Translations under genes and position numbers: made by a program
Assembly (NCBI GenBank): GCA_030730365.1
Contig: JANQVJ010000012.1
Location: forward strand, 108,642 to 172,641
DNA from: Verrucomicrobiales bacterium
GTDB taxonomy: Bacteria > Verrucomicrobiota > Verrucomicrobiia > Verrucomicrobiales > DEV007
Length of the DNA stretch: 64,000 nt
Reading direction: 5' to 3'
Shown here: positions 20,518 to 54,913 of the stretch, piece after piece
Position numbering within the stretch: the first letter of the stretch is position 1
Layout of the letters: each line of letters opens with the position of its first letter
The notes under the pieces: model-generated
Seen by the model: the letters and a program-made list of their open reading frames with translations, nothing else
What the model was told of the DNA's origin: nothing
Database searches by the model: none

Positions 20518-20519
20518 GG

Positions 20520-24461: not shown

Positions 24462-24578
24462 CTTTAAATGCTACTCTGTTAGATTCGATTCTGACCACGA
24501 ATGGGCACTAATTTTCACGAATGAAGAAAGGACCGTTCGGCGGGAATTTGCTTTTTCGTGGTAATGAGAGGTCTGCGA

Positions 24579-27500
24579 CTATTTATTCAGCGCCTCATCC
24601 AAATTCATTAACTGATTGCAAACCATCGTCCACGCCGCGAGGACGGGCGGGGCGATGGCTTTTTCGGCGGGGTTTTCGCCCACGGCGAGGAGGGCGGCGG
24701 TGTCTTCGGGAGTCGTCTGGTAGTGGCTGAGGAGCGAGTGATGGCTCGACTGCATAAGGTTTTTCTCGACCTCGCTGAGGGGTCGGGAAAGGAGACGGCG
24801 GGCGATGAGGTCGAGGGTGTGTTCGTCGTCACCTTTGCTCTCCTGCAGGGCGAGGGTCGCGAGGCGTCGGGCGGCTTCGATGAACTGGGGATCGTTCAGC
24901 GTCACGAGCGCCTGAAGCGGGGTGTTGGTGCGGTCGCGCTTGAGACAGCTGACCTCGCGGTTTGGTGCATTGAAGATTTCCATGCTCGCCGGCGGGGCCA
25001 TGCGCTTCCAGTAGTTGTAGACAGTGCGACGATAAAGGCCATCGCCTTTGTCCTGTGCGTATTTGGCGTTGCCCATGCCGACGGTTTCCCAGACGTTCTC
25101 GGGTTGGTAGGGTTTCGTGCCGGGACCACCCATGGTGGTGGAGAGCGTCCCGCTCGCGGCAAGGGCGCTGTCGCGTATCATCTCGCCGTCCATGCGGTAG
25201 CGCGGACCGCGGCTGAGGAGGCGATTGTCGCGGTCTTTCTCGATCTTGTCCGGGGTAGCCATTGCGGACTGACGGTAGGCGGACGACATGAGGATAGTCT
25301 TGAAAAGGGCTTTCGTGTCCCAGCCCGATTCGATGAATGTCAGGGCGAGCCAGTCGAGGAGTTCGGGGTGGCTGGGGGCGGCGCCCATGAGCCCGAAGTC
25401 GTCGGGGGTGGCGACGATGCCGGTGCCGAAGATCTCCTGCCAGAAGCGATTCACGGTGACGCGGGCGGTGAGAGGATTCTGCGGATCGACGAGCCACTTT
25501 GCAAGGCCGAGGCGGTTCGCGGGAGCACCCTCAGGGAGCGGGTGGAGGACGGCAGGCGGGGCGGCGGCGACCTGCTCACCGACCATGTCGTAGGCACCGC
25601 GCTCGAGGATGTTCGCCATCGCGGGCGAGTCCTTTTTCTCTTCCTGGATGTGGGTCACGGGGCTGCGCCCTTTGATCGTGTCGCGCTCACCCTCGAGTTT
25701 TGCGACGGCGAGATTGAGATCCTGCCAGGGCTTGTCGCGGGTCGCCAGGTAGTTGGCGAAAAGACTCTCAGTCTGTTCGGGCTTGCGCTTCTCCCCGGCG
25801 GCAAGGGCAGCATTGAGAGCGGGGAGTTGGTGGAGACTGGCTGCCTCGGCGGGGGTGAGTCGCTTGGTGAAAAGGCGCAGGTCCTGGACCTGCCCGTCTT
25901 CGAAGAACATGCCGGTGCTGCGCTGACCGAGGCGCAGGGGCGTGTTCGTACGGGTCTCGGCGTCGGCCTTGAGTTTGTCGGTGGTGGCGCGCAGGGGAGT
26001 GTCGGCTCCGTTCACGTAGAGTTTCACGCCGCCGGGTTTGCCGCTGCCGTCATAGGTCACAGTGAGGTGTTGCCACTGGCCGGGTGAGAGGACGGCGCGG
26101 GTCGTGGTGACCTTGAGCGCGTTTTCGGGCCAGGTGTCGATGAGGTGAAAGGCGAGGTTGCGGTTTTCCTGGAGGATGTCCCAGCCGCGGTGAGCTGCCT
26201 TGTCATCCATGCGGGCGATGATGGATCCGCTGAAGCCATCTTTCGGCGAGCGGACCCAGAGGGAGATGGTGAATGGTTCGTTGCGGGCGAAGTTTCCGAG
26301 ATCACCGAGTTCGATTGGAGTTTCTTTTTTCAGAACAGGGGCTTGACCGAATTTGCCTCCAGCAGCCCAGGCGAGTTCTCCGGTCGCTTTGAAGTTCGCT
26401 CCGGCGGGCAGTCGCGCGGCGAGATCCGGGCCCTTGCCCTCGTTAAGCGGGAGATGGGCGACGAGGCCGTCTTCGGGCATGGTGTCTTCAAGGGCGGCCG
26501 GTGTCGCGGAGGCGAGCCAGGTGTCGAATTCGGGCTTCGCGGCGTTGCGGCGTTCCTGTCGTTTTGTCGAGGCGGCGGTGATCTCGCCGGGCAGGGCGGT
26601 CCAGCGGGGGCGATCGGCGTCGCCCGGGACGACGAGGATGGGGCCGCTGTCTTTCACGTTGCCGTCCTTGGGACCCTGGGTCGTGTTGCGGAAAAAGGCG
26701 GCCATGGAGTAATAGTCCTTCGCCGAGAGGGGGTCGAACTTGTGATCGTGGCACTGCGCGCAGTTGAGAGTGAGGCCGAGATAGATCCAACCGAGGGTCT
26801 GGACCCTGTCAGAGGCATAAAGGGCGATGTTTTCCTCGTCGATCGTGCCGCCTTCGTTGGTCGTCATGTTGCAACGCTGGAAGCCGGTCGCGATGAGCTG
26901 GTCTTCGGTGGGCGAGGGGAGGAGGTCGCCGGCGATTTGCTCGACAGTGAACTGGTCGAAGGAAAGGTTGCGGTTGAAGGCACCGATGACCCAGTCGCGG
27001 TAGAGCCACATCTCGCGGTAATTGTCGAAATGGAGACCATGGGTGTCGGCGTAGCGGGCCGCGTCGAGCCAGTAGCGGCCGCGGTGCTCGCCCCAGTGCG
27101 GCGAGGCGAGGTACTGATCGATTAGCTTTTCGTAGGCCTTCGGATCCTGATCGGCGACAAAGGTCTCGACCTCGGCGGGGGTCGGGGGCAGGCCGGTGAT
27201 GTCAAGAGCAACGCGCCGGGCGAGGGCGCGGCGATCTGCCTCTGGTGCCGGAGAGAGTCCGGCCTTGTCAAGTCCGGCGAAGATGAATTGATCGATGGGA
27301 TTCGATACCCGGTCCTTTGCCGAGACTTCGGGGAGAGCGGGTTGCTCAGGCTTAACAAAACTCCAGTGTGGCTGCCATTTCGCCCCGTCGTTGATCCATC
27401 GGCGGATGATCTCGATCTGCTCGGGCTTGAGTTCCTTGTGGGAATCCGGCGGCGGCATGATGTCGTCGGGACTGTCAGCGATAAGGCGATCGTAGAGGGG

Positions 27501-27743
27501 GCTATCGTCGGCCTTGCCCGGTATCACAACGGGATCGTTCCCGCCTTCGCCGAAGAAGCTCTGCTCGGTGTCGAGTCGCAGGTCCGCCTTACGGGTGCCG
27601 GAATCGGGACCGTGGCAATGGAAGCAGGCGTCCGCGAGGATGGGCCGCACGTCGCGGTTGAACGAGAGCGGAGTATCGGCGCCCTCGAGGCGCGAGACAG
27701 TGATGAGGGCCGTCGGGAGCAGAAAGAGAAATTTCCGGATCAT
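24579..27743 (-). CDS. PSD1 (DUF1553)/DUF1549/planctomycete cytochrome c protein with an inserted LamG (concanavalin-A-like) domain
   Basis: CFHCHGPD, WLDAARYADT, CAQCHDHKFD, FTISLWV...WQHLTVTYDG...LYVNG...LRLG LamG pattern, SHPELLDWLA, TPLQALVTLN. Confidence 0.92.
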   Translation of the reverse strand: MIRKFLFLLPTALITVSRLEGADTPLSFNRDVRPILADACFHCHGPDSGTRKADLRLDTEQSFFGEGGNDPVVIPGKADDSPLYDRLIADSPDDIMPPPDSHKELKPEQIEIIRRWINDGAKWQPHWSFVKPEQPALPEVSAKDRVSNPIDQFIFAGLDKAGLSPAPEADRRALARRVALDITGLPPTPAEVETFVADQDPKAYEKLIDQYLASPHWGEHRGRYWLDAARYADTHGLHFDNYREMWLYRDWVIGAFNRNLSFDQFTVEQIAGDLLPSPTEDQLIATGFQRCNMTTNEGGTIDEENIALYASDRVQTLGWIYLGLTLNCAQCHDHKFDPLSAKDYYSMAAFFRNTTQGPKDGNVKDSGPILVVPGDADRPRWTALPGEITAASTKRQERRNAAKPEFDTWLASATPAALEDTMPEDGLVAHLPLNEGKGPDLAARLPAGANFKATGELAWAAGGKFGQAPVLKKETPIELGDLGNFARNEPFTISLWVRSPKDGFSGSIIARMDDKAAHRGWDILQENRNLAFHLIDTWPENALKVTTTRAVLSPGQWQHLTVTYDGSGKPGGVKLYVNGADTPLRATTDKLKADAETRTNTPLRLGQRSTGMFFEDGQVQDLRLFTKRLTPAEAASLHQLPALNAALAAGEKRKPEQTESLFANYLATRDKPWQDLNLAVAKLEGERDTIKGRSPVTHIQEEKKDSPAMANILERGAYDMVGEQVAAAPPAVLHPLPEGAPANRLGLAKWLVDPQNPLTARVTVNRFWQEIFGTGIVATPDDFGLMGAAPSHPELLDWLALTFIESGWDTKALFKTILMSSAYRQSAMATPDKIEKDRDNRLLSRGPRYRMDGEMIRDSALAASGTLSTTMGGPGTKPYQPENVWETVGMGNAKYAQDKGDGLYRRTVYNYWKRMAPPASMEIFNAPNREVSCLKRDRTNTPLQALVTLNDPQFIEAARRLATLALQESKGDDEHTLDLIARRLLSRPLSEVEKNLMQSSHHSLLSHYQTTPEDTAALLAVGENPAEKAIAPPVLAAWTMVCNQLMNLDEALNK

Positions 27744-40765: not shown

Positions 40766-40991
40766 GTCATAAGCTAGCATCGCGGCCGTGGATTGCAAAA
40801 GCCCGAACGGGCGCGGTGGAATCCTAACTACAATCCGAAGGTGAGCCTCGTCCCCTGCGAAGATGTCGCCGCCTTCGCCGCCGAAATGGAGCGACGTCTT
40901 GAGGTCTGCGAGCTCGTCGGGTTTGAGGGGCGCGCGGTTGTGGAAATCACGCGACTTGCGTTTTCGCCTGATTACGGCGATTTTTCCGTCC

Positions 40992-42431
40992 ATGAAACGT
41001 TCTCTCACCCTCGTAGTCGTCCTGCTTTCTTTGACCATGCCTCTGGTCGCGCGGACGTGGAAGCAGGCTTCGACAGGCAAAGCGATCGATGCGGAGCTCA
41101 TCAAGGTGGAGGATGGCAAGGTGCACCTCAAGCTCGCTGATGGTCGCACCGGTCTCGTCGAGGTGCTCTCCCTCAGCCTTGAGGATCAGGAGTTCCTAGC
41201 ATCGGTGGAAAAAGACGGCGCTACTGCAGGTAGCGGTCAGTGGCCGGCCTTCCGCGGCCCCAAAGGCGATGGCATCTCGTCCGACACAAATCTGCTCAAG
41301 GAGTGGCCCGAGGGCGGTCCGAAGCAGCTCTGGGTCTACGATCAGGCCGGTATGGGCTACTCGGGTTTCAGTATCGTCGATGGCAAGCTCTACACGATGG
41401 GGACGCGGGGCGATGATGTCACGATCATGGCAGTCGATGTCGCCACCGGCAAAGAGGCCTGGGCCAAGGCTGTCTCGAAGGACGATCAAAAGGGCTATGC
41501 AGCGGGCTGGGGGCACGGACCTCGCAGCACCCCGACCTACTCCGACGGTCACCTCTACGCGATCGATCCCAAGGGCGGCGTTTTTTGCCTCGATGCCGCG
41601 ACCGGAAAGGAAGTCTGGAAAAAGCATCTCGTCGATGATTTTAAAGGTCAGATGGGCGGATGGGGTTTTTCCGAGTCCCCCCTGATCGATGGCGACAAAC
41701 TCGTCCTCGCACCCGGTGGTAAAGACGCCGGCATCGTCGCGCTCGACAAGAAGACCGGCAGCACGATCTGGTCTGCCTCTGAGCTCCAGCCCGGCAAGGC
41801 AGAATACGCCACCATTATCCCGACCGAGATCAACGGCACGCGCCAGTACATCAAGCTCTTCGAAAGCCAGCTCGCCGCTGTCTCCGCCGAAGACGGTAAG
41901 TTGCTCTGGTCTTCTAAATGGGAGGGCAAGACCGCCGTTATCCCCACCCCCATCGTCTCGGGCAACGAGATCTACATTTCGTCCGGCTACGGCGTCGGCT
42001 GCAAGCTCGTCCGCATCGGCAGCGACAACACCCCGACCGATGTCTGGGTGAATACCGTGATGAAGAACCACCACGGCGGTGTCATCAAGGTGGGCGATCA
42101 CCTCTACGGTTTCTCAGACGGCGGCGGGCTGATCTGTCAGGATTGGAAAACCGGTGAGATGGTCTGGAATGAGAAGACCCAGTTTTTCTCAAAAGGGTCC
42201 GTGCATGTGGCCGATGGTCACCTTTACACACTGAACGAAGGTGACGGCACCCTCTCTCTCGTGGAGGTCAGTCCCACGGAATTCAAGCAAAAGGGCCAGT
42301 TCAAGCTCGATCCCCAGAGTCCCAACCGCAATCCCCAGGGCAAGGTTTGGACGCACCCGCTCGTGCTTGGCGGCAAGCTCTACCTCCGCGATCAGGAGTT
42401 CCTCGTCGCCTACGACGTGAGCGCCCAGTGA
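40992..42431 (+). CDS. SHD1 domain + PQQ-binding-like beta-propeller (BamB-like) protein
   Basis: Signal peptide, RTWKQASTGKAIDAELIKVEDGKVHLK..LSLEDQEF (SHD1-like), WPAFRGPKGDG, STP, ESPLIDG, WTHPLVLGGKLYLRD. Confidence 0.85.
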   Translation: MKRSLTLVVVLLSLTMPLVARTWKQASTGKAIDAELIKVEDGKVHLKLADGRTGLVEVLSLSLEDQEFLASVEKDGATAGSGQWPAFRGPKGDGISSDTNLLKEWPEGGPKQLWVYDQAGMGYSGFSIVDGKLYTMGTRGDDVTIMAVDVATGKEAWAKAVSKDDQKGYAAGWGHGPRSTPTYSDGHLYAIDPKGGVFCLDAATGKEVWKKHLVDDFKGQMGGWGFSESPLIDGDKLVLAPGGKDAGIVALDKKTGSTIWSASELQPGKAEYATIIPTEINGTRQYIKLFESQLAAVSAEDGKLLWSSKWEGKTAVIPTPIVSGNEIYISSGYGVGCKLVRIGSDNTPTDVWVNTVMKNHHGGVIKVGDHLYGFSDGGGLICQDWKTGEMVWNEKTQFFSKGSVHVADGHLYTLNEGDGTLSLVEVSPTEFKQKGQFKLDPQSPNRNPQGKVWTHPLVLGGKLYLRDQEFLVAYDVSAQ

Positions 42432-42520: not shown

Positions 42521-43951
42521 ATGGATTTGCCCGACCCCATACCGCTACCCGGACCACCCGCATTGCCTGTAGCGGACGAGGGCATCGTCGCATCGCCCCG
42601 CCCTGACGCGGTTCGTAAGGCGGCCTGGTGGAGTTGGCCGCTCATCGCCCTCGCACTTTTCCCGTTCAGCTGGTTTGATCAAGGCACGGCCCCCGGGGTC
42701 GAGAGCCCCGCCCCGGCGCACAATCCGAGTGATCTCGCGATTTTAAAAATGCAGGGCCAGGTCGTCATCGCGACTTTCAGGCTCAATCCGCTCGCGGCAA
42801 AGGAAGCTCTCGAAGACCTCTCCAGGGTCGCCGTCGATGATCACTCGGTCGCGGCGCTCGTCCTGCTCGAGTGTTTTGTGCAGCTCGATTCGCCCCGGAT
42901 CGATTCACTCTTGCAGCGTTTTTCGAAAGGCGTCCCCGATGACCTCGCCGCCGCGACCGAGTCCGCCGTCTCGGGCGGGGTTGACGAGACGATGCGCGAG
43001 GACTTGCGGGATCATCTCGGCTGGTTCGCCGATCTCGCGCGGGGGCCCGGACTCGTCGCGCCTCCGCAGGATGAGGCGATCCGCGTGCGCTCCCTCGTCG
43101 TGATGGGAGCGATGGGGCTGGTCTTCACCGGCGGCATGATCGGGATCCTCGTCGGCGGGGTCCTTCTCTTCCTGCATCTGCGCCGGCTCAGAGAGGGGAA
43201 AACGGTCAATGCCTTCGTCCCCGGGCGTGGACCGGCCGGGGTGCTGCTGGAGTGTTTTGCCCTCTACCTGGGGATCATGACCGTCGGCGCGCTCGTCGGT
43301 GCCTACCTTTACGAGCCCTTTGGCATCATCAGCTACGTCGCGGCGGTGGTCATTCCGCTGCTGTGGCCGCGGGTCCGCGGGGTGAGCATGGCGGACTTCA
43401 ATGCGGCGATCGGCCTCCATCGCGGAAAAGGCTGGGGCAAAGAGATCGCCGCCGGCGCCGTCGGGTATCTCGGGGTAATAGCGATCGCCTCGGTCGGGAT
43501 CTCACTGATGCTCCTCCTCACCTACCTTGCCGGTTTGTTTCAAGAGGGCGGCAGTTCCCTGCTGCCGGGCGGCGCGGCGGCGGGCGGAGGAGAAGCGGTC
43601 GGTCCGGAGGCTCATCCCGTCGTCGGCTGGATGTATTACGGGGACTTCTGGACGAAGCTCGCCACTCTCGGACTCGCGGCGGGATTTGCACCGGTCTTTG
43701 AAGAGATCTTTTTCCGAGGCGCGCTCCATCGTTACTTCCGGGGCCGTTTCCGCTTCCTTGCCTCGGCACTGCTCACCGGTGTGATCTTCGCCGCTCTGCA
43801 TCCCCAGGGATTTTTCGCCATCCCCGCTCTCGCGAGCGTCGGAATCGGCTTTTCGCTGCTGCGCGAATGGCGCGACTCGCTCGTCGCCCCCATGGTCGCC
43901 CACGCGATCAACAACGGTGCGCTCGTGCTGATGCTCTGGTGGATTCTGTGA
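42521..43951 (+). CDS. CPBP (CAAX protease/Abi) family intramembrane glutamic endopeptidase with an N-terminal extension
   Basis: EEIFFRG, FAALH, HAINN motifs, multiple TMs. Confidence 0.88.
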   Translation: MDLPDPIPLPGPPALPVADEGIVASPRPDAVRKAAWWSWPLIALALFPFSWFDQGTAPGVESPAPAHNPSDLAILKMQGQVVIATFRLNPLAAKEALEDLSRVAVDDHSVAALVLLECFVQLDSPRIDSLLQRFSKGVPDDLAAATESAVSGGVDETMREDLRDHLGWFADLARGPGLVAPPQDEAIRVRSLVVMGAMGLVFTGGMIGILVGGVLLFLHLRRLREGKTVNAFVPGRGPAGVLLECFALYLGIMTVGALVGAYLYEPFGIISYVAAVVIPLLWPRVRGVSMADFNAAIGLHRGKGWGKEIAAGAVGYLGVIAIASVGISLMLLLTYLAGLFQEGGSSLLPGGAAAGGGEAVGPEAHPVVGWMYYGDFWTKLATLGLAAGFAPVFEEIFFRGALHRYFRGRFRFLASALLTGVIFAALHPQGFFAIPALASVGIGFSLLREWRDSLVAPMVAHAINNGALVLMLWWIL

Positions 43952-43984
43952 ATCCCCGATCCTGCCGCTTCGAGAGGCCACCTA

Positions 43985-44150
43985 AGCAGGAAGGAAATTA
44001 AGTATTCTTAATTATAAAAACATCTTGATTAATAAGTTTTGGCGCGATAGTCTAAAATCAATAAAAAAGCCATAAAATAGCAATTGTGCCATTATTTTAA
44101 GGTTTTGTAGCTACAATCAGGTGTAATAAAAGTTTCCCAGACTCAAGCAG
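43985..44150 (+). promoter_or_regulatory. AT-rich promoter region of the Mgl-like cluster
   Basis: Hand count about 23-30% GC over 43981-44100, against about 60-70% in flanks. Candidate -10 GCTACAAT at 44110-44117. Confidence 0.5.
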
Positions 44151-44155
44151 GTGCC

Positions 44156-45925
44156 ATGTCTTTTTCTTTTCGAAACATTTTTTCCCCGGATGAAGGAGAC
44201 CTGGAGGGATCTCCTTCCGGTTTTGTGCTTCCGTCGGATTCGGCTGACGGTGAAATGAGCCGCGGCGGGGTCGAAGCGGAAATTGCCGTTCCTCAATTAC
44301 CGGGGCAGGAGTATCTCGTCAGTGAACTTATCGCCTTTATCCCCCCGTCGATCTCGGCGCAGAGTGGCATCCCGATGGCGCGTGAGCTGCGGATCCCGCT
44401 TCCCTCCGACGGTAGTCGCGACGTGAAGCTATCGACGATTTATCAGATCTGCCCCGAGCTTTTCGGCTCCGAGATTACTCCGCTCAATGACTCCATCGTG
44501 ACTCTGCCGCCCAAGCTCGGAGCGATGATGGGGGAGGGCATTGCCGCCCCCGCGGCGGACAAACTCGCGGCTGGATTCGGTGCCACCCCGGCTTCTTTCC
44601 CCGTGAGGGCTGGCAATCCATTCACCGCGATTCCCAGAGACATGAAAGACGACACGACCCGATCCCGTCAGGCTGAAGCGCCCGCGTGGCCCATGGAGGT
44701 CGTCGAAGGGCTCAATCCCTTCGCCGGCACCCCTGCAACGAGTGGAAGCGCATCTTCAGTGGATACAGTTGAGGGCTCTACCGGAGGTTTTGCGGGATTC
44801 GATTCCATGCCCTCTTCCGTCCTTTTCGGGGACGGTGCCAGTGCCGTGACGAACGAAGTAGACGAGAAGGGTGGAAAAGATTTCCCGGGAAATCCCTTCG
44901 AAAGCGAACAGGGCTTCAAGACCCTTTTCTCGATGCAGGCCGAGGTTGATAGGGATATTCCCTTTTCGGGCGCTCCGACACCCGGCCCGGCGTTCACGCC
45001 TAGTGAGCAGATCGAAGAGCCCCGGGGCATCTGGGGCACGATGTTCCACGGGGCGGGACTCCCAGAGGCAGATACGGCGCTCGCGGGAGACGAGTCGTTT
45101 TCTCCGCCGACCTTTAAGAGCATGGGAAATCTTTTGAAACAGGTGACAGGTCCGGCTGCGGTAACTCCTCCGGTCGACTTTCAATCCGCAATCGAACCGG
45201 CAGCACCGTCGGCATCCGCTCCTGCCCCGGCAAACGGGCCCAAAGTGACTGAGCTGGCGCAGAAAGAGGCGATCGCGCCGGTTTCTGGAATCCCCGCCTT
45301 TACCGCATCCACTCAGGGATTCGCGGGATTCGCGGGATTCGGGTCCGATACGGGGTCGACCCTGTCGCCAATCGATGCCTTTGCTAGTGGAGTGCCTTTT
45401 GAGGCGACTGCTCCGGCACCGGCGGTTTTTGAAGCTCCTGCTCCCGTGGTAGAGGCCCCCCTTGCGCCCGAGCCGCTCACTGCCCTCGCTCCCGCCGCCG
45501 CGAGGGCGACGGCTCCCGCTGCTGGTGAGGCGAGCTTCGACATGCGCGATCTCGAGTTGCGCGCGATTTTCTCGACGAGTGAAAATTTCACCCTCTCGAT
45601 GGTGGCACGCCGCGTCGTCGGTCTGCCGGGCATTGTCAGTTGTTCACTCTCGACTCCCGGCAATTTGGTCCAAGCCTCGAAGTCCGAAGACGCTAGCATC
45701 AGCAACGAGGCCCCGGAGATGGTCGCAATCGTGCGCAGTCTCGCGAAGCTGACGGGTCTGCCCGAGGCACGTAATTTTACCCTGCAAACCGATCGCGGCA
45801 TCATCAGCCTTTTCGTCGAGGGAGAGTGCTGTGTCATGGTTCATCACGAGGCGGTGACCTTCGAGCCTGGTGTGCGCGAAAAACTCATCCTCGTGGCGAG
45901 GCGTCTCATTGATCTGGAGGAATAG
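44156..45925 (+). CDS. Largely disordered protein with a C-terminal roadblock/LC7-like domain
   Basis: Long P/A/G/F-rich low-complexity middle. C-terminal LPGIVSCSLSTPGNLV...FTLQTDRGIISLF...GVREKLILVARRL has the roadblock pattern. Next to mglA. Confidence 0.65.
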   Translation: MSFSFRNIFSPDEGDLEGSPSGFVLPSDSADGEMSRGGVEAEIAVPQLPGQEYLVSELIAFIPPSISAQSGIPMARELRIPLPSDGSRDVKLSTIYQICPELFGSEITPLNDSIVTLPPKLGAMMGEGIAAPAADKLAAGFGATPASFPVRAGNPFTAIPRDMKDDTTRSRQAEAPAWPMEVVEGLNPFAGTPATSGSASSVDTVEGSTGGFAGFDSMPSSVLFGDGASAVTNEVDEKGGKDFPGNPFESEQGFKTLFSMQAEVDRDIPFSGAPTPGPAFTPSEQIEEPRGIWGTMFHGAGLPEADTALAGDESFSPPTFKSMGNLLKQVTGPAAVTPPVDFQSAIEPAAPSASAPAPANGPKVTELAQKEAIAPVSGIPAFTASTQGFAGFAGFGSDTGSTLSPIDAFASGVPFEATAPAPAVFEAPAPVVEAPLAPEPLTALAPAAARATAPAAGEASFDMRDLELRAIFSTSENFTLSMVARRVVGLPGIVSCSLSTPGNLVQASKSEDASISNEAPEMVAIVRSLAKLTGLPEARNFTLQTDRGIISLFVEGECCVMVHHEAVTFEPGVREKLILVARRLIDLEE

Positions 45926-45929
45926 AGTC

Positions 45930-46583
45930 ATGGCACTGGTTCGACACGACACCCGGGAGATACAGTTCAAGATCGTGTATTGTGGTCCGGCCGGAAGCGG
46001 GAAAACGACGAACCTGACCTACCTCCACAGGCGTCTCGATCCCCGCGTGCGGGGCGACCTCGTCTCCATCGAGACCGAGCAGAATCGCACGATCTGCTTC
46101 GATTTTCTCTCCGTAGACTCCTCCGAGATTGCGGGCTACCGGACCCGTTTTCAACTCTACACCGCTCCCGGACAAGAGGTCCTCGCCGAAACCCGTCGCA
46201 CTGTCCTCGCCGGAGCGGACGGGATCGTCTTTGTCGCGGACTCGACCCCGGGATCTTTCGAGGCAAACCTGACCGCCTACGAAGGCTATCGCGATTCGCT
46301 GCGGCGGAATAATGTCCACCCCGATCGTGTTCCTGTGGTGTTCCAGTATAACAAGCGTGATCAGCATGGGGCGAAGCGTCCCGAGGACCTCGACGAAGCC
46401 TTCTCCGTGCACAGCCCCTCTTTTCTCGCCTGCGCTGCGACCGGATACCAGATCTTCGCGACGCTCGACTATCTGAATAGCGGGATTCTCAGAGGATTTC
46501 ATGCTTCCCTCGACGCCGGAAATTGCGCTACATTAGCAGAGGAAAGCCGAGGGAAAGAACTCGTCCTCGAGGGAGTCAATTGA
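45930..46583 (+). CDS. mglA: MglA-like small Ras-family GTPase
   Basis: REIQFKIVYCGPAGSGKTTNL (G1), RTICFDF (G2), LYTAPGQ (G3), GADGIVFVADS, QYNKRD (G4). Confidence 0.92.
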   Translation: MALVRHDTREIQFKIVYCGPAGSGKTTNLTYLHRRLDPRVRGDLVSIETEQNRTICFDFLSVDSSEIAGYRTRFQLYTAPGQEVLAETRRTVLAGADGIVFVADSTPGSFEANLTAYEGYRDSLRRNNVHPDRVPVVFQYNKRDQHGAKRPEDLDEAFSVHSPSFLACAATGYQIFATLDYLNSGILRGFHASLDAGNCATLAEESRGKELVLEGVN

Positions 46584-46601
46584 GGTTCGGCACCGCACAT
46601 C

Positions 46602-47798
46602 ATGGAAAGTAAAGACAGCAGCAGCCCTGAGAGCGGGGACTATCCGGCCGCCCTACCCCTCGAGATCAGCCAAGTAGTTGCTTCGCGAGCGGACGATCTG
46701 TTGAGGGAATTCGCCGAGGACTCGGGCCTCGAAACAGCGCTTATCGTGGACCGCAGTGGCGCCTTCGTCGCGGGAATCTCGGCCGAGGCCGAAGTCACAG
46801 TCGAAGTGATATCAGCCCTCGTCGCCGGGGCGAGTGGCGCGATGCGGGCCCTCGTCTCCCAACTCGGTGAGACTGGGGCGATGGAGAGCCTCCATCTCGG
46901 TGGCGATCGCATGATCTACCTCCGCGAGATCGTGAACGGGTTTATCCTCGTCGGGGTCTCCGACGCGACTTGCCCCGCCGGGCTCGTGCGCAGTAAGGCC
47001 CACGCCATTGAGGGAGAACTCACCAAACTGCTCCGCGACATCCGACCTGCGGGAGTGCCCTTGCCCACCCTGGCAGGCAGTAGCTCCGGCTCCCTGCCCG
47101 AAGTGGCGATGAGCCGGGATGCCGAAGGCCTCGCACCGCTCGAGGAAGAGGCCGAAACGGATCTCGGGGTCGGGCCTGATCCCGAAATTCCCAGAGTCGA
47201 ATCTCTCCCCTTCGCCAACGAGAAAGAGGAAGAGGAACTCGAGATCGAACCCATTTTTGAATCCGATCCCGAGCTCGAGCCCGGGCTCGAAGATAATGTC
47301 AGGGTGACGCCTGTCGAGCCGCGGGAGATTCTCGAGCCGCTCGATTTCGGCGAGGCCGAGATCGTGATCGAGCCGGCCATCCCGATGATACCGCCTTTTA
47401 CAAAGCGGCATCTTCCTGTCGATTCCCCCTTTGAGGTGGAGATGGCTGAGTCTAATAAAGATGACGAAGAAGAGAAAACAGTGGTGCCTGCGGTGACCTT
47501 ACTCTCGGAGTCCATCTTCGAATTGGAATCATCTAATGACGAAGAAGAGTTCGAGTTGAGCGTCCCCAAGCCCCCGGCTTCGTTTTTTGAATTTCCGGGC
47601 GATGATGAAGAAGAATTGACCGACGAGACCGGGCAGGCGGGCGACAACTTCTTCGAAGCGGACGACGATGACGATACGGGCGAGAACGGGCACGAATCCG
47701 AAGATATCGCCGAAGATATCGCCGAAGAAATTCGCGAAATGATCGACGAAGAGGAAGAAGAATCTGAGGTTCGGAGTTCTGGTCCGTTCTATTTTTGA
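46602..47798 (+). CDS. MglB-like roadblock protein with a long acidic disordered C-terminal tail
   Basis: ALIVDRSG, SALVAGASGAMRALVSQLGE, HLGGDRMIYL, AGLVR match the MglB pattern. About 260 aa Glu/Asp-rich tail. Confidence 0.82.
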   Translation: MESKDSSSPESGDYPAALPLEISQVVASRADDLLREFAEDSGLETALIVDRSGAFVAGISAEAEVTVEVISALVAGASGAMRALVSQLGETGAMESLHLGGDRMIYLREIVNGFILVGVSDATCPAGLVRSKAHAIEGELTKLLRDIRPAGVPLPTLAGSSSGSLPEVAMSRDAEGLAPLEEEAETDLGVGPDPEIPRVESLPFANEKEEEELEIEPIFESDPELEPGLEDNVRVTPVEPREILEPLDFGEAEIVIEPAIPMIPPFTKRHLPVDSPFEVEMAESNKDDEEEKTVVPAVTLLSESIFELESSNDEEEFELSVPKPPASFFEFPGDDEEELTDETGQAGDNFFEADDDDDTGENGHESEDIAEDIAEEIREMIDEEEEESEVRSSGPFYF

Positions 47799-47890
47799 AG
47801 TCCCTCGCCGGGCACTAATTGCTTGGCGGGGCGGACATCGTGTGTTACACACTTATTCCCCGTGATCTTGGCTGAAACACCGTCTCTCTT

Positions 47891-48571
47891 ATGGATTTGA
47901 TTACAAAAGGCGGGCCGCTCATGTGGCTCCTGTTGGGTTGTTCCGTTATCGCCATTGCGATTTTTCTTGAGCGTCTTTTCTACTTCCACCGGGCCCGCAT
48001 CGATGTCGGTGATCTCCTCTTCGGGTTGCGCAACCTGATCAAGAACAAAGCCTACGCGGAGGCTCTCTCCGAGTGTGCGGCCACTCCCGGTCCCGCCGCT
48101 CGCGTTATCCATTCGGCGATCCGCCGCTACTCATCCCCCCGCACCGAACTGCGCGAGATCGTGCAGGAAAGCGGCCAGCTCGAGGTGCCCAAGCTCGAAA
48201 AACACCTCGCTGTGCTCCTCACCGTCGCCTACATCGCCCCGCTCATCGGTCTCCTCGGGTCTGTCCTCGGGCTCGTCGACACCTTCGTCCAGATTAACGC
48301 TGTCGGCGGATTCGCCACGGTGGCGGAAATCTCGCAGGGCGTCTACGAGGCCCTCATCACTTCGGCCGCCGGCCTCATGGTCGCGATCCCCGCCTTCGTC
48401 TTTTACTCCCACCTGCGCGCCTACGCGAAAAGTCTCATGCACGACATGGAGAGTGCCGGGATTGAGATCGTGAACACGATCTGTGATCTGCGGATTCAGA
48501 CCGCCGACATCATCTCGATCCGCTCGGATCGTCCCGGTGAGTCCGACGGGATCCCGGAGGCGCGTCAGTAA
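47891..48571 (+). CDS. MotA/TolQ/ExbB proton channel protein
   Basis: GGPLMWLL, IAPLIGLLGSVLGLVDTF, GVYEALITSAAGLMVAIPA. Confidence 0.93.
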   Translation: MDLITKGGPLMWLLLGCSVIAIAIFLERLFYFHRARIDVGDLLFGLRNLIKNKAYAEALSECAATPGPAARVIHSAIRRYSSPRTELREIVQESGQLEVPKLEKHLAVLLTVAYIAPLIGLLGSVLGLVDTFVQINAVGGFATVAEISQGVYEALITSAAGLMVAIPAFVFYSHLRAYAKSLMHDMESAGIEIVNTICDLRIQTADIISIRSDRPGESDGIPEARQ

Positions 48572-48597
48572 ATCTTCAATTAGAGGAAAACGAGACC

Positions 48598-49002
48598 GTG
48601 AAACTGGAATCCACCTTGAGTGACCGGGCCGGGATGCTCTACACGGCACCTCTCATGGACGTGATTCTGCTGCTGATGATTTTTTTCCTCTTCGGCTCGA
48701 ATCTAGTGCTGAAGTCAGGGGTCGAGGTCAATCTCCCGACCTCGAGTTCGTCTTTACCCTCGGCGGAAGATGCGCATATCATCACCCTCATTCCGACCGA
48801 CACGGCCGAGTTCTATTTCAACGACGAGCGAGTCGATCTCGCCCGCCTCGAGACGCGGCTCGAAGAGGCGATCAAGCGCTCGGATCAGGTCGTCATCCTC
48901 GGAGATCAGGCGGTCGACTACGGCGTCGTCATGGAGATCGCGAAGCTTGTCCTCAATGCCGGCTTCGAAGTCTCTTTCGCCACCAAGGTGGAAACTCCCT
49001 GA
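48598..49002 (+). CDS. ExbD/TolR family protein (GTG start)
   Basis: APLMDVILLLMIFFLF with the conserved Asp, VNLP, VILGDQAVDYGVVMEI. Confidence 0.92.
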   Translation: MKLESTLSDRAGMLYTAPLMDVILLLMIFFLFGSNLVLKSGVEVNLPTSSSSLPSAEDAHIITLIPTDTAEFYFNDERVDLARLETRLEEAIKRSDQVVILGDQAVDYGVVMEIAKLVLNAGFEVSFATKVETP

Positions 49003-49005
49003 ATA

Positions 49006-49725
49006 ATGGCCACCGCAGCGCTACCCGAAGAACAGGACGAACGCGGCAAGGTCTTTAACTGGGCTCGCGAAAAGCGCACCTGGCTCCACATCACCGCGTT
49101 TCTCCTCTTCTCTATCATTGTGCATGGATCGGGCTTTTATCTTTTCAAGGTGGTCTATCCCTCTCCTGTCCGTGTCGAGCCGCGGCCCGATGCGATCACG
49201 GTCCTGGACGCGACAGATCCGGTCGTGCGCTCGGTCCTGCAGCGCATCTCCGACCGCACCATCTTCCTGCTTCCGCCTTCTTCACAGAGCGACGTGCGGG
49301 TGCAGCTCGAGGCGAATCGGGTTCGCTTTACTCCCGCTTTCCAGCGCACTGAGCTGGAGCTGAAAGAGCCGCCGCTCGCGGCCGCTCTTCCGGGCATCAT
49401 CGAACCTCTCGAGCCGTTCGCTGGCGCCGGGTCCGACGATGCCCCGGGGCGCGGCATCCGGGTGAAAGTGGATCCTTCGCTCGTGGATCGACCAATCGCA
49501 CCGTGGTCCATCATGGGCGACTACCTTAAGACCGCTGTCTCTCTACCGCTCTTGCGCGTCGATCTCGAGATCGCGCTCGACGGACGGGTCCGTGTCACCG
49601 GAGTCCGGGCCGGGCTCGAGGACTCCGAAAAAGCGGAGCTCGCCACGGTGATCGAGTCGACCCTGCGGTTCGTCCCGGCTGCTGCAGTGGAAACCGGCTG
49701 GATCGAAATCGGCGGGGAGGGTTGA
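49006..49725 (+). CDS. TonB/TolA-like energy transducer (putative)
   Basis: Single N-terminal TM containing SxxxH (LFSIIVH), Pro-rich linker, C-terminal LRVDLEIALDGRV...LRFVP like TonB_C. Follows exbBD-type genes. Confidence 0.6.
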   Translation: MATAALPEEQDERGKVFNWAREKRTWLHITAFLLFSIIVHGSGFYLFKVVYPSPVRVEPRPDAITVLDATDPVVRSVLQRISDRTIFLLPPSSQSDVRVQLEANRVRFTPAFQRTELELKEPPLAAALPGIIEPLEPFAGAGSDDAPGRGIRVKVDPSLVDRPIAPWSIMGDYLKTAVSLPLLRVDLEIALDGRVRVTGVRAGLEDSEKAELATVIESTLRFVPAAAVETGWIEIGGEG

Positions 49726-49773
49726 TCTTTTCTCCGCGAGGGTCCACCGTAAAAAACCGAGCTTTTCCCCGCC

Positions 49774-50013
49774 ATGTTTCACGTTACCCTCGATGGAATG
49801 ATCGCCGTTTATCTCGTCGGCATCCTTTGCGCCCTCTTCTTCGCCTGGGTCGCGGCCGAGATCTTTCGCAAAGGGCGGGAAAATCAGCGGCGCAAGTATT
49901 TCGTCATCTGCGGGATCTGCGATCACGTCTTCGAAGATCTTTCCGATCTCGACCTCGCCGAGTGCCCCCGCTGCGGCGCGATGAATGAGCGTGAGCGCAT
50001 CATCGAGATCTGA
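49774..50013 (+). CDS. Small membrane-anchored zinc-ribbon protein
   Basis: N-terminal TM then CGIC-x15-CPRC. Confidence 0.75.
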   Translation: MFHVTLDGMIAVYLVGILCALFFAWVAAEIFRKGRENQRRKYFVICGICDHVFEDLSDLDLAECPRCGAMNERERIIEI

Positions 50014-50136
50014 GGAAAGAGGGTCAAGTCGCTGACGCGGCAGGTCAGGTCGGCATCCCCGGAGGACGGTGGAGCCGTAATCCTCGATGAGGAGTGCGCT
50101 CTTGAAACTTCTCCCTAACTCGTTCACCTTCCCTCC

Positions 50137-51264
50137 ATGCCATCCCAATACATCATGATCGGCGGATTCCTCGGGGCGGGGAAGACGACCCTGATCCAGC
50201 GCTTCGCCCGCTACCTCGACGATCGCGGCACGCGGGTCGGACTGATCACCAATGACCAAGGTGCGGGACTCGTCGACTCAGCGATAGGCCGATCGAACCA
50301 CTTTCCCGTTGAGGAAATCTCGGGAGGTTGCTTTTGCTGTCGCTTCAATTCCCTGATCGACGCCGCCACTTCCCTGACGGCGGCGAACCGGCCCGATGTC
50401 TTCCTCGCCGAGCCGGTCGGGAGCTGCACCGATCTCGTCGCGACGGTCTCCCTGCCACTGCAGAAAATATACGGAGGAGACTACAGGGTGGCACCACTCA
50501 GCGTCCTCGTCGACCCGATCCGGGCCGGACAGATCCTCGGGATCGCGGAGGGACGCAAGTTCTCCGAGAATGTGCTCTACATCTACCGCAAGCAACTCGA
50601 AGAGGCTGAGTTCATCGTCGTGAACAAACTCGATCTCCTTGACGAAGAGAAAAGGGGCGATCTCGTCGCCGCGCTCGGACGCGAGTTCCCCGAGGCGACC
50701 GTCTTCGAAGTCTCGGCTCGTGAGGGGACCGGATGCGAGGCCTGGTTCGAGGCGGTCCTCGCGGCAGAGATGAACACGGGCCGTTTTCTCGAGATCGATT
50801 ACGATCGTTACGGCGAAGGCGAGGCGCTCCTCGGCTGGCTCAATGCCACGGTCGAGATCAAATGCGAAGGCTGCGGGGTGGATGAGTTCGACGGCAACGA
50901 ATTGCTGCAATCACTCGCAACGACGCTGCGAACCCGCCTCGAATTCGCCGGAGCCGAAGTCGCCCATCTCAAGATGACACTCACGCCTCTCGGCGATCCC
51001 TACGAGATTGCCGCGATCAATCTCGTGCGGGGCGATTCGATGCCCGAGCTTTCCCATCGCCTCTACGAACCGATTGAGGACGGCGAATTGCTCCTCAACA
51101 TCCGCGCCGAGGTAGATCCAGCGACGCTCGAAGCCGCCGCCCTCGGTGCGCTCGAGGAAACCATCGCGATAGACCGCTCTATCCTGTTCCGTATTGCCCA
51201 CCTTGAGCATTTTCGCCCGGGGATGCCGACGCCCACGCATCGCCTCACGGCGGAAACGTTCTGA
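50137..51264 (+). CDS. G3E family GTPase (CobW/HypB/UreG; COG0523-like)
   Basis: GGFLGAGKTT, LITND, GGCFCC metal motif, EPVGSC, NKLD, SAREG. Confidence 0.88.
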   Translation: MPSQYIMIGGFLGAGKTTLIQRFARYLDDRGTRVGLITNDQGAGLVDSAIGRSNHFPVEEISGGCFCCRFNSLIDAATSLTAANRPDVFLAEPVGSCTDLVATVSLPLQKIYGGDYRVAPLSVLVDPIRAGQILGIAEGRKFSENVLYIYRKQLEEAEFIVVNKLDLLDEEKRGDLVAALGREFPEATVFEVSAREGTGCEAWFEAVLAAEMNTGRFLEIDYDRYGEGEALLGWLNATVEIKCEGCGVDEFDGNELLQSLATTLRTRLEFAGAEVAHLKMTLTPLGDPYEIAAINLVRGDSMPELSHRLYEPIEDGELLLNIRAEVDPATLEAAALGALEETIAIDRSILFRIAHLEHFRPGMPTPTHRLTAETF

Positions 51265-53223: not shown

Positions 53224-54113
53224 AGCCTTCCCGCTTACGGCTGCGGCCGGTCCCGCTTGTGCCTTTTGATGAGGCGACCGCTCATGTGGCGTCCCATGAC
53301 TTTCTCGAGATCGAGGGACAGCGTATTCATGTGAGGGTTTCGGGGGAAGGGCCGCCGCTGCTGCTGCTGCACGGCTTCATGGCATCGCACTATTCCTTTC
53401 GCCGCATCGTCCCGGAGCTCGCCCGACATTTCCGGGTGATCTCTATTGATCTGAACGGCTTCGGTCTGACGGAGCGCCCTGCTTCGCCCGAGGCCTATCG
53501 TATCGGGGATCAGGCCGATCTCGTCGTGCGCGTTCTCGAGAAAATCGGCGCGACTCCGGTGACGATTCTGGGCCATTCCTACGGCGCGGCGGTGGCCTCG
53601 GTAACGGCATTGCGACATCCTGAAGCGGTGCGGGGGCTCATCCTCGTGAGTCCTGCCTCGCGTTTCGATAAACTTCCCTGGTATCTGAAAATACGCGCCG
53701 GAAAAGAGGTTCTCTATTTTCTCTGTCGACGTCTCCTTTCCCACCCCGAGCATTACCGACGCATCTCCGAGCGCGCCTTTCACGTGGAAGGTTCGCACAC
53801 AGAGGAGGACTCCGAGACCTATCGGGGGCATCTTCTCGTCGAGGGGCTCCGGTCCACTTTTTTCGGTTTGATGGAAATGCTCGGGGGAAAAGGATTTGGA
53901 CGAATCCCCTTTGAAGAGATTCAAGCACCTGCGCTGGTCCTCGCGGGGGACAGGGATATCATCATCCCGCTCGAGCAGTGTCGCGAAGTGGCGGAGCAGT
54001 TGCCCGGCGGTCGGCTCGAGATACTCGAGGAATGCGGTCACTCCGGCCCCGAAGAGCGACCCGATGAAGTCATAGCGGCGCTGCTGAGTTTTGTCGCTCA
54101 GTGCCGATTCTGA
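53220..54113 (+). CDS. Alpha/beta fold hydrolase
   Basis: LLHGF, IDLNGFGLT, GHSYG nucleophile elbow, LAGDRD, CGH. ATGA overlap with the previous gene. Confidence 0.9.
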   Translation: MKPSRLRLRPVPLVPFDEATAHVASHDFLEIEGQRIHVRVSGEGPPLLLLHGFMASHYSFRRIVPELARHFRVISIDLNGFGLTERPASPEAYRIGDQADLVVRVLEKIGATPVTILGHSYGAAVASVTALRHPEAVRGLILVSPASRFDKLPWYLKIRAGKEVLYFLCRRLLSHPEHYRRISERAFHVEGSHTEEDSETYRGHLLVEGLRSTFFGLMEMLGGKGFGRIPFEEIQAPALVLAGDRDIIIPLEQCREVAEQLPGGRLEILEECGHSGPEERPDEVIAALLSFVAQCRF

Positions 54114-54808
54114 CCCGCATATGTCTGGATCACGTCGATGAGGTGCTGGCCGGTCGCGGTGGGTCGAATCGCAGGATCAAAGAGGATGTCGTTCATGCTC
54201 CGGCCATAGTAGACGTCGTTGTTCTTTGTGGCGGGGAGGATGCCTCCGCCTTTAAACGCGGCCCCCGCAAAAAGTCCTTCTGCGCTGGTGTAAACGAGGA
54301 TGGGGGACTTCATCGTGGTGGTGTCGATCTTCCCGCCGGTATCGTTGGGACCTGCCGTCGCGGCGACATCGACACCGACATCGAGCGACCCGCCGAGGAG
54401 AGGTTTCAGGGCGGTTTCGTTCATCAGCACGTAAATAATAACCGACTCCTGCGCGCCGATCTGGAGACCGTAGCTGCCCTCGGCCGAGGCGATGAAGGCG
54501 GGGGCGCTCCAGACTCCCGTAGTTTTATTCCGCACCATCGCGACGCCGTTGCCGGCTTCGCCGCCAATGCCGAGTCCGGCTTTTACCTTGTGCAGGATAA
54601 TAATGCCGTGAGCCTTCGCGATGACCTCGGCCGGAATGCGCTTTTTCGGCTCTGCCTGCATCTCGACAAAGCGCTCGGAAGCGCGCCTGATACGAATATC
54701 GAGCTTCTCAGCTGATTTTTTGAAAGGACCGGCAAGAGCGTCATCGACTCCAGCGCTGAGAGAGAGGGAGACGGCGAGGAGTAGAGCGGAGATGGGGCGG
54801 AATTTCAT
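54098..54808 (-). CDS. Lipid-binding SYLF (Ysc84) domain protein, exported
   Basis: Signal peptide, KAGLGIGGEAGNGV, WSAPAF, SYGLQIGAQ, AEGLFAGAAFKG, NDVYYG. Confidence 0.88.
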   Translation of the reverse strand: MKFRPISALLLAVSLSLSAGVDDALAGPFKKSAEKLDIRIRRASERFVEMQAEPKKRIPAEVIAKAHGIIILHKVKAGLGIGGEAGNGVAMVRNKTTGVWSAPAFIASAEGSYGLQIGAQESVIIYVLMNETALKPLLGGSLDVGVDVAATAGPNDTGGKIDTTTMKSPILVYTSAEGLFAGAAFKGGGILPATKNNDVYYGRSMNDILFDPAIRPTATGQHLIDVIQTYAGQNRH

Positions 54809-54913
54809 GGTCGGGGGAGCAGAACCTCCCCTTCTGAAACGGAATAACTTTAACAATTATTAGTTAAACAAGTAAAAGTGAATGGAGAACACCCGGGATG
54901 TGCGGGAAGAGAA

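Follow-up and report, generated by a model that had tools for sequence, protein, structure and literature searches.

Does a Ras-like polarity switch engage a proton-driven envelope motor in the Verrucomicrobiota? To our knowledge, Myxococcus is the only organism in which MglA and MglB are known to control a motor of the Tol/Exb type. The question is raised by seven closely packed genes in a 64,000-nucleotide stretch of DNA from a Verrucomicrobiales bacterium (GenBank assembly GCA_030730365.1, contig JANQVJ010000012.1, positions 108,642 to 172,641 of the forward strand; hereafter the window). Here, a gene that we call g1 and the genes for MglA and MglB precede genes for ExbB/TolQ-like and ExbD/TolR-like proteins, for a TonB-like transducer (g6) and for a small membrane protein with a zinc ribbon (g7). 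About 20 verrucomicrobial lineages share the order g1-mglA-mglB-exbB-exbD-g6-g7, and we take the system to be specific to the clade formed by the Verrucomicrobiales and their relatives. We read the locus as consisting of two modules, one of which, the Mgl/roadblock module, positions or gates the ExbB-ExbD-TonB-like-zinc ribbon motor encoded by the other, and we give this reading not quite an even chance.

Layout and expression of the locus

An earlier reading of the same DNA (below, the original prediction) had described a packed forward-strand block, with gaps of 3-92 bp, behind an AT-rich promoter. The open reading frame (ORF) listing confirms the seven ORFs at 44156-50013 with the coordinates then given; they occupy 5.9 kb, and the gaps from g1 to g7 are 4, 18, 92, 26, 3 and 48 bp. 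All seven gene calls were right as well, including the roadblock domain of g1, recovered by fold search, and the TonB-like end of g6. The features are the following (aa, amino acids; AF2, AlphaFold2 model; PDB, Protein Data Bank; TM, transmembrane):

43952..44155, + strand: AT-rich intergenic region with a sigma-70-like site (GC drop, promoter-like match)
44156..45925, + strand: g1, 589 aa, roadblock scaffold-like (AF2 and Foldseek)
45930..46583, + strand: mglA, 217 aa, small GTPase (PDB matches, invariant residues)
46602..47798, + strand: mglB, 398 aa, roadblock domain and acidic tail, starting 18 bp past mglA (Pfam Robl_LC7, PDB)
47823..47851, + strand: promoter-like element in the mglB/exbB gap (recurring pattern upstream of exbB)
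47891..48571, + strand: exbB/tolQ-like gene, 226 aa (Pfam MotA_ExbB)
48598..49002, + strand: exbD/tolR-like gene, 134 aa (Pfam ExbD)
49006..49725, + strand: g6, TonB/TolA-like transducer, 239 aa (SxxxH, AF2, Foldseek)
49774..50013, + strand: g7, TM helix and zinc ribbon, 79 aa (alignments, Cys pattern)

The AT-rich promoter ahead of g1 is also real in composition: GC drops from about 0.63 to 0.40 across the 204 bp preceding the gene, and a sigma-70-like site (TTAATA-18-TAAAAT) lies at 44029-44058. The earliest metatranscriptome contig starts at 44195, already inside g1. A GTG at 45870 was considered as the start of mglA and rejected; every homologue starts at the ATG equivalent to 45930. A scan of 42-52 kb against Rfam gave zero matches.

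The seven ORFs are real genes rather than chance ORFs, because conserved homologues number from dozens to hundreds for each of them and all are covered in metatranscriptomes. Fragments 93-100% identical to the window, covering parts of all seven genes, occur in lake-water metatranscriptome assemblies. Single RNA contigs bridge g1/mglA (45687-46076), mglA/mglB (46499-47001) and exbB/exbD (48419-48781); the g6/g7 junction is bridged by an RNA contig too, the contigs in that area being 49742-50049 and 49515-49772. Nearly all named homologues are labelled Verrucomicrobiales and a few Verrucomicrobiota, Verrucomicrobiae or Verrucomicrobiaceae, the odd labels being one Bacteroidia and one contaminant in an isopod assembly. 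The g1, g6 and g7 families are unannotated, each named member being a "hypothetical protein".

The Pfam scan of the window covered 40 ORFs (those of about 200 aa or more, plus g7, with a few of about 107-150 aa falling outside it). Among these 40 there is no TonB-dependent receptor, TolB or Pal, which agrees with what the original prediction had said of the surroundings; neither the locus, nor the scanned window ORFs, nor the related loci contain TolB, Pal or OmpA-like genes.

The switch and motor modules

The product of the second gene matches M. xanthus MglA (E=1e-41) and T. thermophilus MglA (3e-39) in the PDB, with Rab and Arf proteins at about 1e-3. All 14 clade members compared share its motifs G19-T26 (P-loop), R53, P80-G81-Q82 and N141-K-R-D144. 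A relative in culture, "Verrucomicrobiales bacterium BCK34", has an MglA of 63% identity whose annotation reads gliding-motility protein. The catalytic Arg and Gln were thus correctly recognized at the outset, R53 and Q82 being both aligned and invariant. Judged by these motifs the protein is MglA proper, with a predicted intrinsic Arg finger, a catalytic Gln and NKxD. Wuichet and Sogaard-Andersen found only Group 5 MglA in Verrucomicrobia and noted that the neighborhoods of MglA Groups 1, 4 and 5 "vary widely" (PMC4316618).

The third gene encodes a divergent MglB, putatively of the GTPase-activating protein (GAP) type by homology. The protein scores 26.6 bits with Pfam Robl_LC7 (cut-off 23) over a roadblock domain at about 30-147, and its best PDB matches are MglB structures (1e-8), with "alvagasga" aligned to "tlvagnaaa" in the alpha2 LVAG helix. 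We call it divergent because it reaches only 41 bits with the NCBIfam MglB equivalog, whose cut-off is 200. Its tail of about 250 aa is acidic and disordered and carries the conserved motifs EILEPLDFGExEI, DSPFE and VFExDD and, at the C-terminus, EVRSSGPFYF, the ending SGPFYF being invariant in the alignment. MglB measures 356-547 aa in the Verrucomicrobiales clade versus 165-186 aa in the distant loci L001 and L136.

The g1 protein begins with a conserved MSFSFRNIF and a small folded N-domain (about 50-120). Its middle part, about 330 aa, is disordered and Pro/Ala/Gly-rich, with the motifs NPFWSP, GNPFESExGF..LFS, WGAMF and SIGNLLKQ. The C-domain (about 130 aa, at about 460-589) is modeled by AF2 at a predicted local distance difference test score (pLDDT) of 74-90 as alpha-beta-beta-alpha-beta-beta-beta-alpha. 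Foldseek places M. xanthus MglB at the top for this domain (E=1.4e-4, probability 1.00, TM-score 0.64-0.70), with LAMTOR, Ragulator and Asgard roadblocks next in rank, and the modeled domain is accordingly a predicted roadblock/LC7 fold. At the sequence level, g1 gave zero matches in Pfam, NCBIfam and the PDB; the PDB likewise yielded nothing to sequence and profile searches with g1 or with its C- or N-domain alone, and an hhalign comparison of the g1 C-terminal profile with the MglB profile was negative (probability 0.2%). Homologues of g1 form 114 clusters at 90% identity, the source-named ones being Verrucomicrobiales or Verrucomicrobiae except for one Bacteroidia.

Phe-plus-acid short linear motifs are common to the MglB tail (DSPFE, SxFExE, VFExDD and the terminal SGPFYF) and to g1, in whose disordered region NPFWSP and GNPFESExGF are the conserved motifs of this kind. 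In its general design, g1 invites comparison with known partners of MglA and MglB: it resembles MglC in having a divergent roadblock domain whose nearest structure is MglB, and RomR in combining a folded domain, a long Pro/Ala/acidic disordered region and a C-terminal domain. However, it has no sequence similarity to MglC, RomR or RomY and lacks a receiver domain.

The g1-mglA-mglB trio is broader than the linked arrangement. It occurs in L001 (7594-11194) and L003, both from distant verrucomicrobial metagenome-assembled genomes (MAGs), with a g1-like protein (profile E=1e-26 to 1e-31), an MglA of 47% identity and a short MglB; the motor was not found within 10 kb of the trio in either locus. 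L001 bears the label Akkermansia sp.; the source of L003 is a metagenome chromosome of 6.3 Mb.

The motor module begins with a protein of the MotA_ExbB family (PF01618, 96.8 bits versus a gathering score of 22.9). Among NCBIfam equivalogs it scores higher with tolQ (90.6, cut-off 221) than with exbB (55.1, cut-off 206), both below cut-off, and in the PDB it finds TolQ at 1.5e-12 versus ExbB at 3.5e-8. Both the fourth and the fifth gene product score higher with TolQ/TolR than with ExbB/ExbD, while staying far under all equivalog cut-offs. From these scores ExbB is putatively TolQ-like rather than iron-uptake ExbB-like. ExbD scores 70.3 bits with PF02472 (versus 25.4), and in the alignment with E. 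coli ExbD its Asp21 falls on the Asp of the TM helix, which we take to be the essential D25.

The N-terminus of g6 is cytoplasmic and contains an invariant F17-x-W19; S36xxxH40, invariant in 30 sequences, lies within the single TM helix (15-46 in the model). A low-confidence linker leads to a C-domain (150-239, beta-beta-alpha-beta, AF2 pLDDT 86-97). When the whole chain was searched with Foldseek, C-terminal domains of TonB/FusB made up 10 of the 15 top PDB hits, the best at E=0.016 and target TM-scores 0.36-0.42, with none at or below 1e-3. There are no Pfam or NCBIfam matches for g6, and PF03544 TonB_C is absent from g6 and 10 distant family members even at E<=0.01-0.1. The family comprises 346 clusters at 50% identity in a full HMMER scan with the g6 profile. 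It includes natural variants of about 150 aa (L088 13104-13556, L125 and L124) that have no C-terminal domain in any frame and that keep the cytoplasmic FxW, the TM helix with SxxxH and the periplasmic segment next to the membrane.

The last protein, g7, consists of a TM helix (about 8-31), a basic RKGRENQRRK stretch and a zinc ribbon, C46xxC49...C64PRC67G, which the positive-inside rule predicts to be cytoplasmic. Its matches to Zn_ribbon_8 and FmdB are weak and under the cut-offs. A PDB sequence search gave only chance-level matches to rubredoxin/rubrerythrin knuckles and no link to the zinc ribbons of GltJ or ZitP; no Pfam, FHA or GYF domain was found in g6 or g7. Among loci whose MglA proteins are 55-78% identical, g7 is 81-97% identical, and its TM helix is nearly invariant. 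It follows g6 directly even in L136 (57%) and in L138 (32%, overlapping the g6 stop). The near-invariance of the helix, together with the persistence of the g6-g7 pair at 26-32% identity, argues that g7 is a genuine fourth motor subunit.

How does this module compare with the familiar Tol/Exb systems? It is like Tol-Pal in that ExbB scores best against TolQ models and structures, no TonB-dependent receptor lies nearby, and the protein encoded after the motor genes spans the membrane once, has SxxxH and ends in a small alpha/beta domain, like TolA. It differs in lacking TolB, Pal, CpoB and YbgC and in possessing an extra TM-zinc ribbon subunit; moreover, at 239 aa g6 has no long helical TolA domain II, and TolA domain III ranks below TonB C-domains in the fold search. 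With ExbB-ExbD-TonB it shares the MotA_ExbB and ExbD families, the TM Asp, the SxxxH of g6 and, possibly, a TonB C-domain-like fold. It departs from that system in having no TonB_C match, no classical Pro-rich rod and no receptor nearby, in the loss of the g6 C-domain in some lineages, and in coexisting with a canonical set in L136.

Conservation and separability of the two halves

Around MglA homologues, the full seven-gene order is found in 6 of 9 loci (MglA 55-78% identical), and g1-mglA-mglB without the motor in the other three (L082, L083 and L086). Anchoring on g7 in Joint Genome Institute (JGI) metagenomes gives a similar picture: where the contig extends 3 kb or more ahead of exbB (18 loci), g1 and mglB immediately precede the motor in 17. 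Another five contigs are shorter and have mglB or mglA at the contig end. In L105 the motor stands by itself. The arrangement survives in new surroundings. In L088 the g1-g7 order is intact while both flanks are different. L136, found through the HMMER scan with the g6 profile, keeps the block with a different upstream flank, at identities of 54% for MglA, 71% for ExbB, 43% for ExbD, 29% for g6 and 57% for g7; a g1-like protein, a short MglB and fabF are present. Thus, the synteny of the mgl, exbBD and zinc ribbon genes, whose conservation the original prediction had suggested testing, is conserved in most relatives, including this deeply diverged one.

A second cluster in L136, at 1-2394, is of the canonical TonB_C-ExbB-ExbD-def (peptide deformylase) type. 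It lies 5 kb ahead of the Mgl-motor block on its upstream side, and its ExbB shares just 31% identity with the ExbB of the motor module. Since the canonical set is present beside it and diverges to this extent, the Mgl-linked motor is a specialized paralogue and not the ordinary housekeeping TonB energizer.

As an outgroup we took canonical mglA loci of other phyla (MglA <=47% identical) among the matches listed by the MglA-alignment scan. In these 80 loci, exbB or exbD lies within 10 kb in three; there is no adjacent co-oriented exbBD pair and no relative of g6 or g7. Where mglB was detected among these matches it mostly precedes mglA, the order g1-mglA-mglB being that of loci from the Planctomycetes-Verrucomicrobia-Chlamydiae (PVC) group.

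Across loci L081-L129, identity to the window protein is 76-99% for ExbB, 56-99% for g7, 50-98% for ExbD, 54-83% for MglA, 34-65% for MglB, 33-86% for g6 and 31-59% for g1. In the distant L138 it is 58% for ExbB, 32% for g7 and 26% for g6. ExbB is the best-conserved protein of the locus and, going by these identities, the stator core and g7 are much more tightly constrained than the switch.

One could envision, however, that the locus unites two independent systems, neighbors by descent, whose adjacency carries no regulatory meaning. The Mgl switch would then serve pili, a growth zone or division, and the motor would be a self-contained envelope system of the Tol/TonB type. This is the main rival of the coupled reading, and we regard it as somewhat less likely. 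The unequal conservation just described, with ExbB and g7 far better conserved than MglA, MglB and g1, fits it well, as does the seemingly wider spread of g6 (346 clusters at 50% identity, versus 114 at 90% for g1). So do the trios of L001 and L003 that have no motor within 10 kb.

Several further findings weigh against a coupling of switch and motor, and the first of these concerns the neighborhood. The unrelated genes for PQQ_2 and Rce1 proteins upstream and fabF downstream are kept nearly as widely as the mgl-motor adjacency. With PQQ_2/SHD1, Rce1 and fabF so similarly placed, inherited collinearity could explain some of the synteny, perhaps much of it.

The second is an element in the mglB/exbB gap, made up of TTGGCG (47823-47828), a 17-nt spacer ending in TGT, and TACACA (47846-47851). 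Of 30 unique sequences upstream of exbB, 16 show this composite pattern with the same spacing to the gene (shuffles: mean 0.37, maximum 3), and 24 show TGnTA at -41..-70 (shuffles: mean 7.4); the pattern was derived from the same data as those tested, and these statistics are indicative only. Among motor-only loci, L101 and L105 carry the composite element and L130 the TGnTA part only; the distant L136 and L138 have the composite too. As its position is conserved within otherwise unalignable spacers, the element is hard to explain except as a candidate promoter or regulatory site. The gap (47798-47891) is bridged by no contig from confirmed RNA runs; one contig that does bridge it comes from a run of unknown type. 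Contig data of this kind cannot demonstrate absence, and DNA carry-over is possible. The conserved promoter-like element and the lack of a confirmed RNA contig across the gap make it probable that the two halves are separate transcription units. The original prediction had named a promoter or terminator in this interval as evidence against its own view of the locus: a promoter-like element is indeed present, whereas no terminator-like site was found between 47798 and 47891. A hairpin after the mglB stop was rejected as a terminator for want of a U-tract (z=-1.3), and a GTGTG-TTA-CACAC palindrome over the -10 was rejected as a conserved operator, being present only in the closest relatives of the window.

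Third, the halves have parted exactly at the mglB/exbB junction, and both remained intact afterwards, in at least two lineages, L082/L130 and L105/L101/L133. L086, likewise without the motor, may or may not be a further independent split, so that the count stands at two or more. In the L082 lineage, MglA (MBP6602975, MBP9222806) and a g6 homologue (MBP6601456, MBP9225463) occur in the same two MAGs. L130 is a motor copy from the same sample as L082, with the usual fabF-sigma70 genes downstream and, immediately upstream of the motor block, IS66-family (TnpB and DDE) and IS200-like Y1 transposase genes (3874-7380). Because IS66- and IS200-type transposases sit at the breakpoint and the usual downstream genes are kept, this split is derived, with both halves retained. 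In the second split lineage a GFO_IDH_MocA gene lies upstream of exbB. In the most distant motor module, L138, the gene ahead of the motor lies on the opposite strand, and mglB is not adjacent. The mgl and exbBD blocks are linked in most relatives, contrary to one of the outcomes that the original prediction had said would refute it, yet the junction has come apart repeatedly.

Finally, some lineages do without mglA itself. L106 (6555-6816) and L121 have lost it by deletion, a "MAPVNHKK" remnant being left in a 260-bp gap, and in L093 (2757-3164) the gene is degenerate, without the P-loop and the PGQ motif; g1, mglB, exbB, exbD, g6 and g7 are all intact in these three loci. To this may be added L123 (6875-9830), where g7 occurs once without exbB, exbD or g6, behind znuA-znuC-znuB.

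Mere neighborhood, on the other hand, does not readily account for the persistence of the adjacency in L088 and L136 despite changed gene order or deep divergence, nor for a junction that is short, same-strand and free of a terminator. Both modules were kept together in the split genomes that were checked, and a cytoplasmic zinc ribbon on a Tol/Exb-type machine is, in the one studied case, precisely the element that binds MglB. The coupled reading therefore owes its appeal to an adjacency that survives changed flanks, to the co-retention of both halves after a split and to the GltJ precedent; it is weakened by the internal promoter-like element, by the clean separability of the halves and by the loss of mglA.

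Two flanking genes deserve mention in their own right. A secreted PQQ_2/BamB-like beta-propeller with an SHD1 domain (40863-42431, + strand) and an Rce1-like CPBP intramembrane protease (42521-43951, + strand) precede the locus, and their position is kept in nearly all Verrucomicrobiales loci, including the motor-less L082 and L086 and excluding L088 and L136. The SHD1 domain of yeast Sla1 binds NPFxD motifs. A contact between the SHD1 propeller and the NPF motifs of g1 is topologically unlikely, since the propeller has a signal peptide and g1 has none. A lone gene for a fabF-like beta-ketoacyl-ACP synthase II stands after g7 on the same strand in most lineages (L084-L089, L105, L123 and L130-L136), among them the distant L136 and L123 with its solitary g7.

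Possible roles of the locus

If switch and motor are coupled, how might the system work? Module 1, made up of g1, mglA and mglB and read from the AT-rich promoter near 44.03 kb, would form a cytoplasmic Ras-like switch, in which MglA would cycle between GTP and GDP, MglB would act as a roadblock GAP with a long acidic, motif-bearing tail, and g1 would add another roadblock domain, a divergent one, joined to a long disordered scaffold and a small N-domain. Module 2 (exbB-exbD-g6-g7), with its own promoter-like element, would be a specialized proton-motive stator. By analogy with TolQ5R2 and ExbB5D2, an ExbB pentamer would surround an ExbD dimer, Asp21 serving as the proton-binding residue. Force would pass to g6 through its SxxxH TM helix and on to the periplasmic TonB/TolA-like C-domain where this is present, while the TM helix of g7 would pack on the stator and hold the basic stretch and the zinc ribbon at the cytoplasmic face. 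By docking on that face, the Mgl/roadblock module could set where or when the motor engages; it might bind to g7, at the zinc ribbon and basic stretch, and to g6, at its invariant FxW. As to the output, the most economical guess would be envelope remodeling or force transmission at a defined site of the cell. Roles in motility, prostheca formation or predation are pure speculation. A more specific version, in which MglA-GTP, the MglB tail and g1 all dock directly on the g7 zinc ribbon and basic stretch and on the g6 FxW, and so switch on or localize a dedicated stator that pulls on the envelope by way of g6 at one defined site of the cell, strikes us as unlikely.

The idea that the switch may control the motor draws on an analogy with Myxococcus, for which the statements of the original prediction were right: GltJ, with its cytoplasmic zinc ribbon, engages the Mgl proteins, AglRQS is a TolQR-like motor and GltG is TonB-like (PMC11135422, PMC3169522, PMC11761067). 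In GltJ, the zinc ribbon binds MglB through the C-terminal helix of the latter and the linker binds MglA-GTP (PMC11135422). The C-terminal domain of the TonB-like GltG was called at a Foldseek level about as weak as that of g6, near 1e-2 (PMC11761067). Common to both systems are MglA and the MglB roadblock GAP with a TolQ/TolR-type proton motor, a single-pass TonB-like transducer and an inner-membrane-tethered zinc ribbon, here predicted to be cytoplasmic. One difference speaks against the coupled reading: the zinc ribbon of g7 sits on a separate 79-aa protein without linker or GYF domain, and the PDB sequence search found no homology between it and that of GltJ. Other differences lie in the gene order (g1-mglA-mglB here versus mglB-mglA), in the linkage of mgl to the motor, which is absent from Myxococcus, and in the MglB tail of about 250 acidic residues.

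Might the motor instead energize outer-membrane uptake in the manner of TonB, possibly of a metal such as zinc, with g7 as a zinc sensor or regulator and Mgl irrelevant to it? The SxxxH anchor and the possibly TonB C-domain-like fold of g6 could be so interpreted. The gene after g7 in the window (50137-51264, + strand) encodes a COG0523/CobW-type metallochaperone GTPase with a GCFCC motif, and in L123 g7 directly follows znuA-znuC-znuB. These are two independent zinc-related neighbors of g7, fabF occupying the place in most other lineages. We nevertheless find this explanation improbable. The cobW gene follows g7 only in close relatives of the window, and znuABC precedes g7 only in L123; the 64-kb window has no TonB-dependent receptor among its scanned ORFs; some lineages lack the g6 C-domain that would be needed for contact with a receptor; L136 already has a canonical TonB_C-ExbB-ExbD set nearby; and ExbB scores as TolQ-like, not ExbB-like.

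The Agl-Glt core comprises aglR, two TolR-like genes (aglQ and aglS), gltD, gltE, gltG and gltC (PMC3169522). The locus has one ExbD in place of the AglQ/AglS pair and no homologues of GltD/E/C/A/B/H/K, AglZ or GltI; the second TolR-like subunit and the periplasmic or tetratricopeptide repeat (TPR) proteins GltD/E/C are absent from the related loci as well. That the locus is a true, reduced homologue of this machine driving surface motility, as the match in kinds of component (MglA/MglB, a TolQR-like motor, a TonB-like protein and a cytoplasmic zinc ribbon) might suggest, is most improbable and is rejected on gene content, there being a single ExbD, no GltD/E/C-like gene, no Pfam, FHA or GYF domain in g6 or g7, and, in Myxococcus, an mgl operon that is unlinked to agl/glt and in which mglB precedes mglA. 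Gliding is, as far as we know, not a documented trait of this verrucomicrobial group. Of the compact analogous system that the original prediction had proposed, the correspondence of component types holds, while the absence of the Agl-Glt core makes it an analogue at most and not a homologue.

Full-text literature searches returned no paper that connects MglA with Verrucomicrobiota or with an ExbBD/TolQR neighborhood, in agreement with the earlier statement that no description was known from this phylum. The V. spinosum essential-genome paper contains nothing attributable to the cluster.

Elsewhere in the window, a protein with a Ysc84 (Las17-binding, actin-regulator-like) domain is encoded at 54098-54856 (- strand), and also at the equivalent place in L081. 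Two DUF1501 and PSD1/PSCyt2 pairs surround a HisKA_3 kinase and a LuxR-type regulator at 14512-27743 (- strand), a gene set that appears typical of PVC bacteria and unrelated to the Mgl-motor locus. The remaining scanned ORFs are of typical PVC content (PSCyt/PSD1/DUF1501, sulfatases, DUF7133).

What is new here is the pairing of Mgl with a motor, together with three uncharacterized families; the component types were already known. The Myxococcus machine has at least 17 parts encoded in several loci. In the window the same kinds of part are packed into 5.9 kb, and the arrangement extends through an entire order of bacteria that are abundant in water and soil. Even if the two modules do not interact, the locus defines a verrucomicrobial (PVC-type) Mgl module, g1-mglA-mglB, and an uncharacterized four-gene system of the ExbBD family (ExbB-ExbD-g6-g7) that coexists with canonical TonB, and its natural variants without mglA or without the g6 C-domain are ready-made genetic tests. 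If they do interact, the locus would offer a small, tractable system in which a Ras-like switch engages a proton-driven motor, and would point to a polar or envelope process not yet described in Verrucomicrobiota. Direct docking, if true, would make it an independent, non-myxobacterial case of bacterial focal-adhesion logic, built from three never-described families, g1, g6 and g7.

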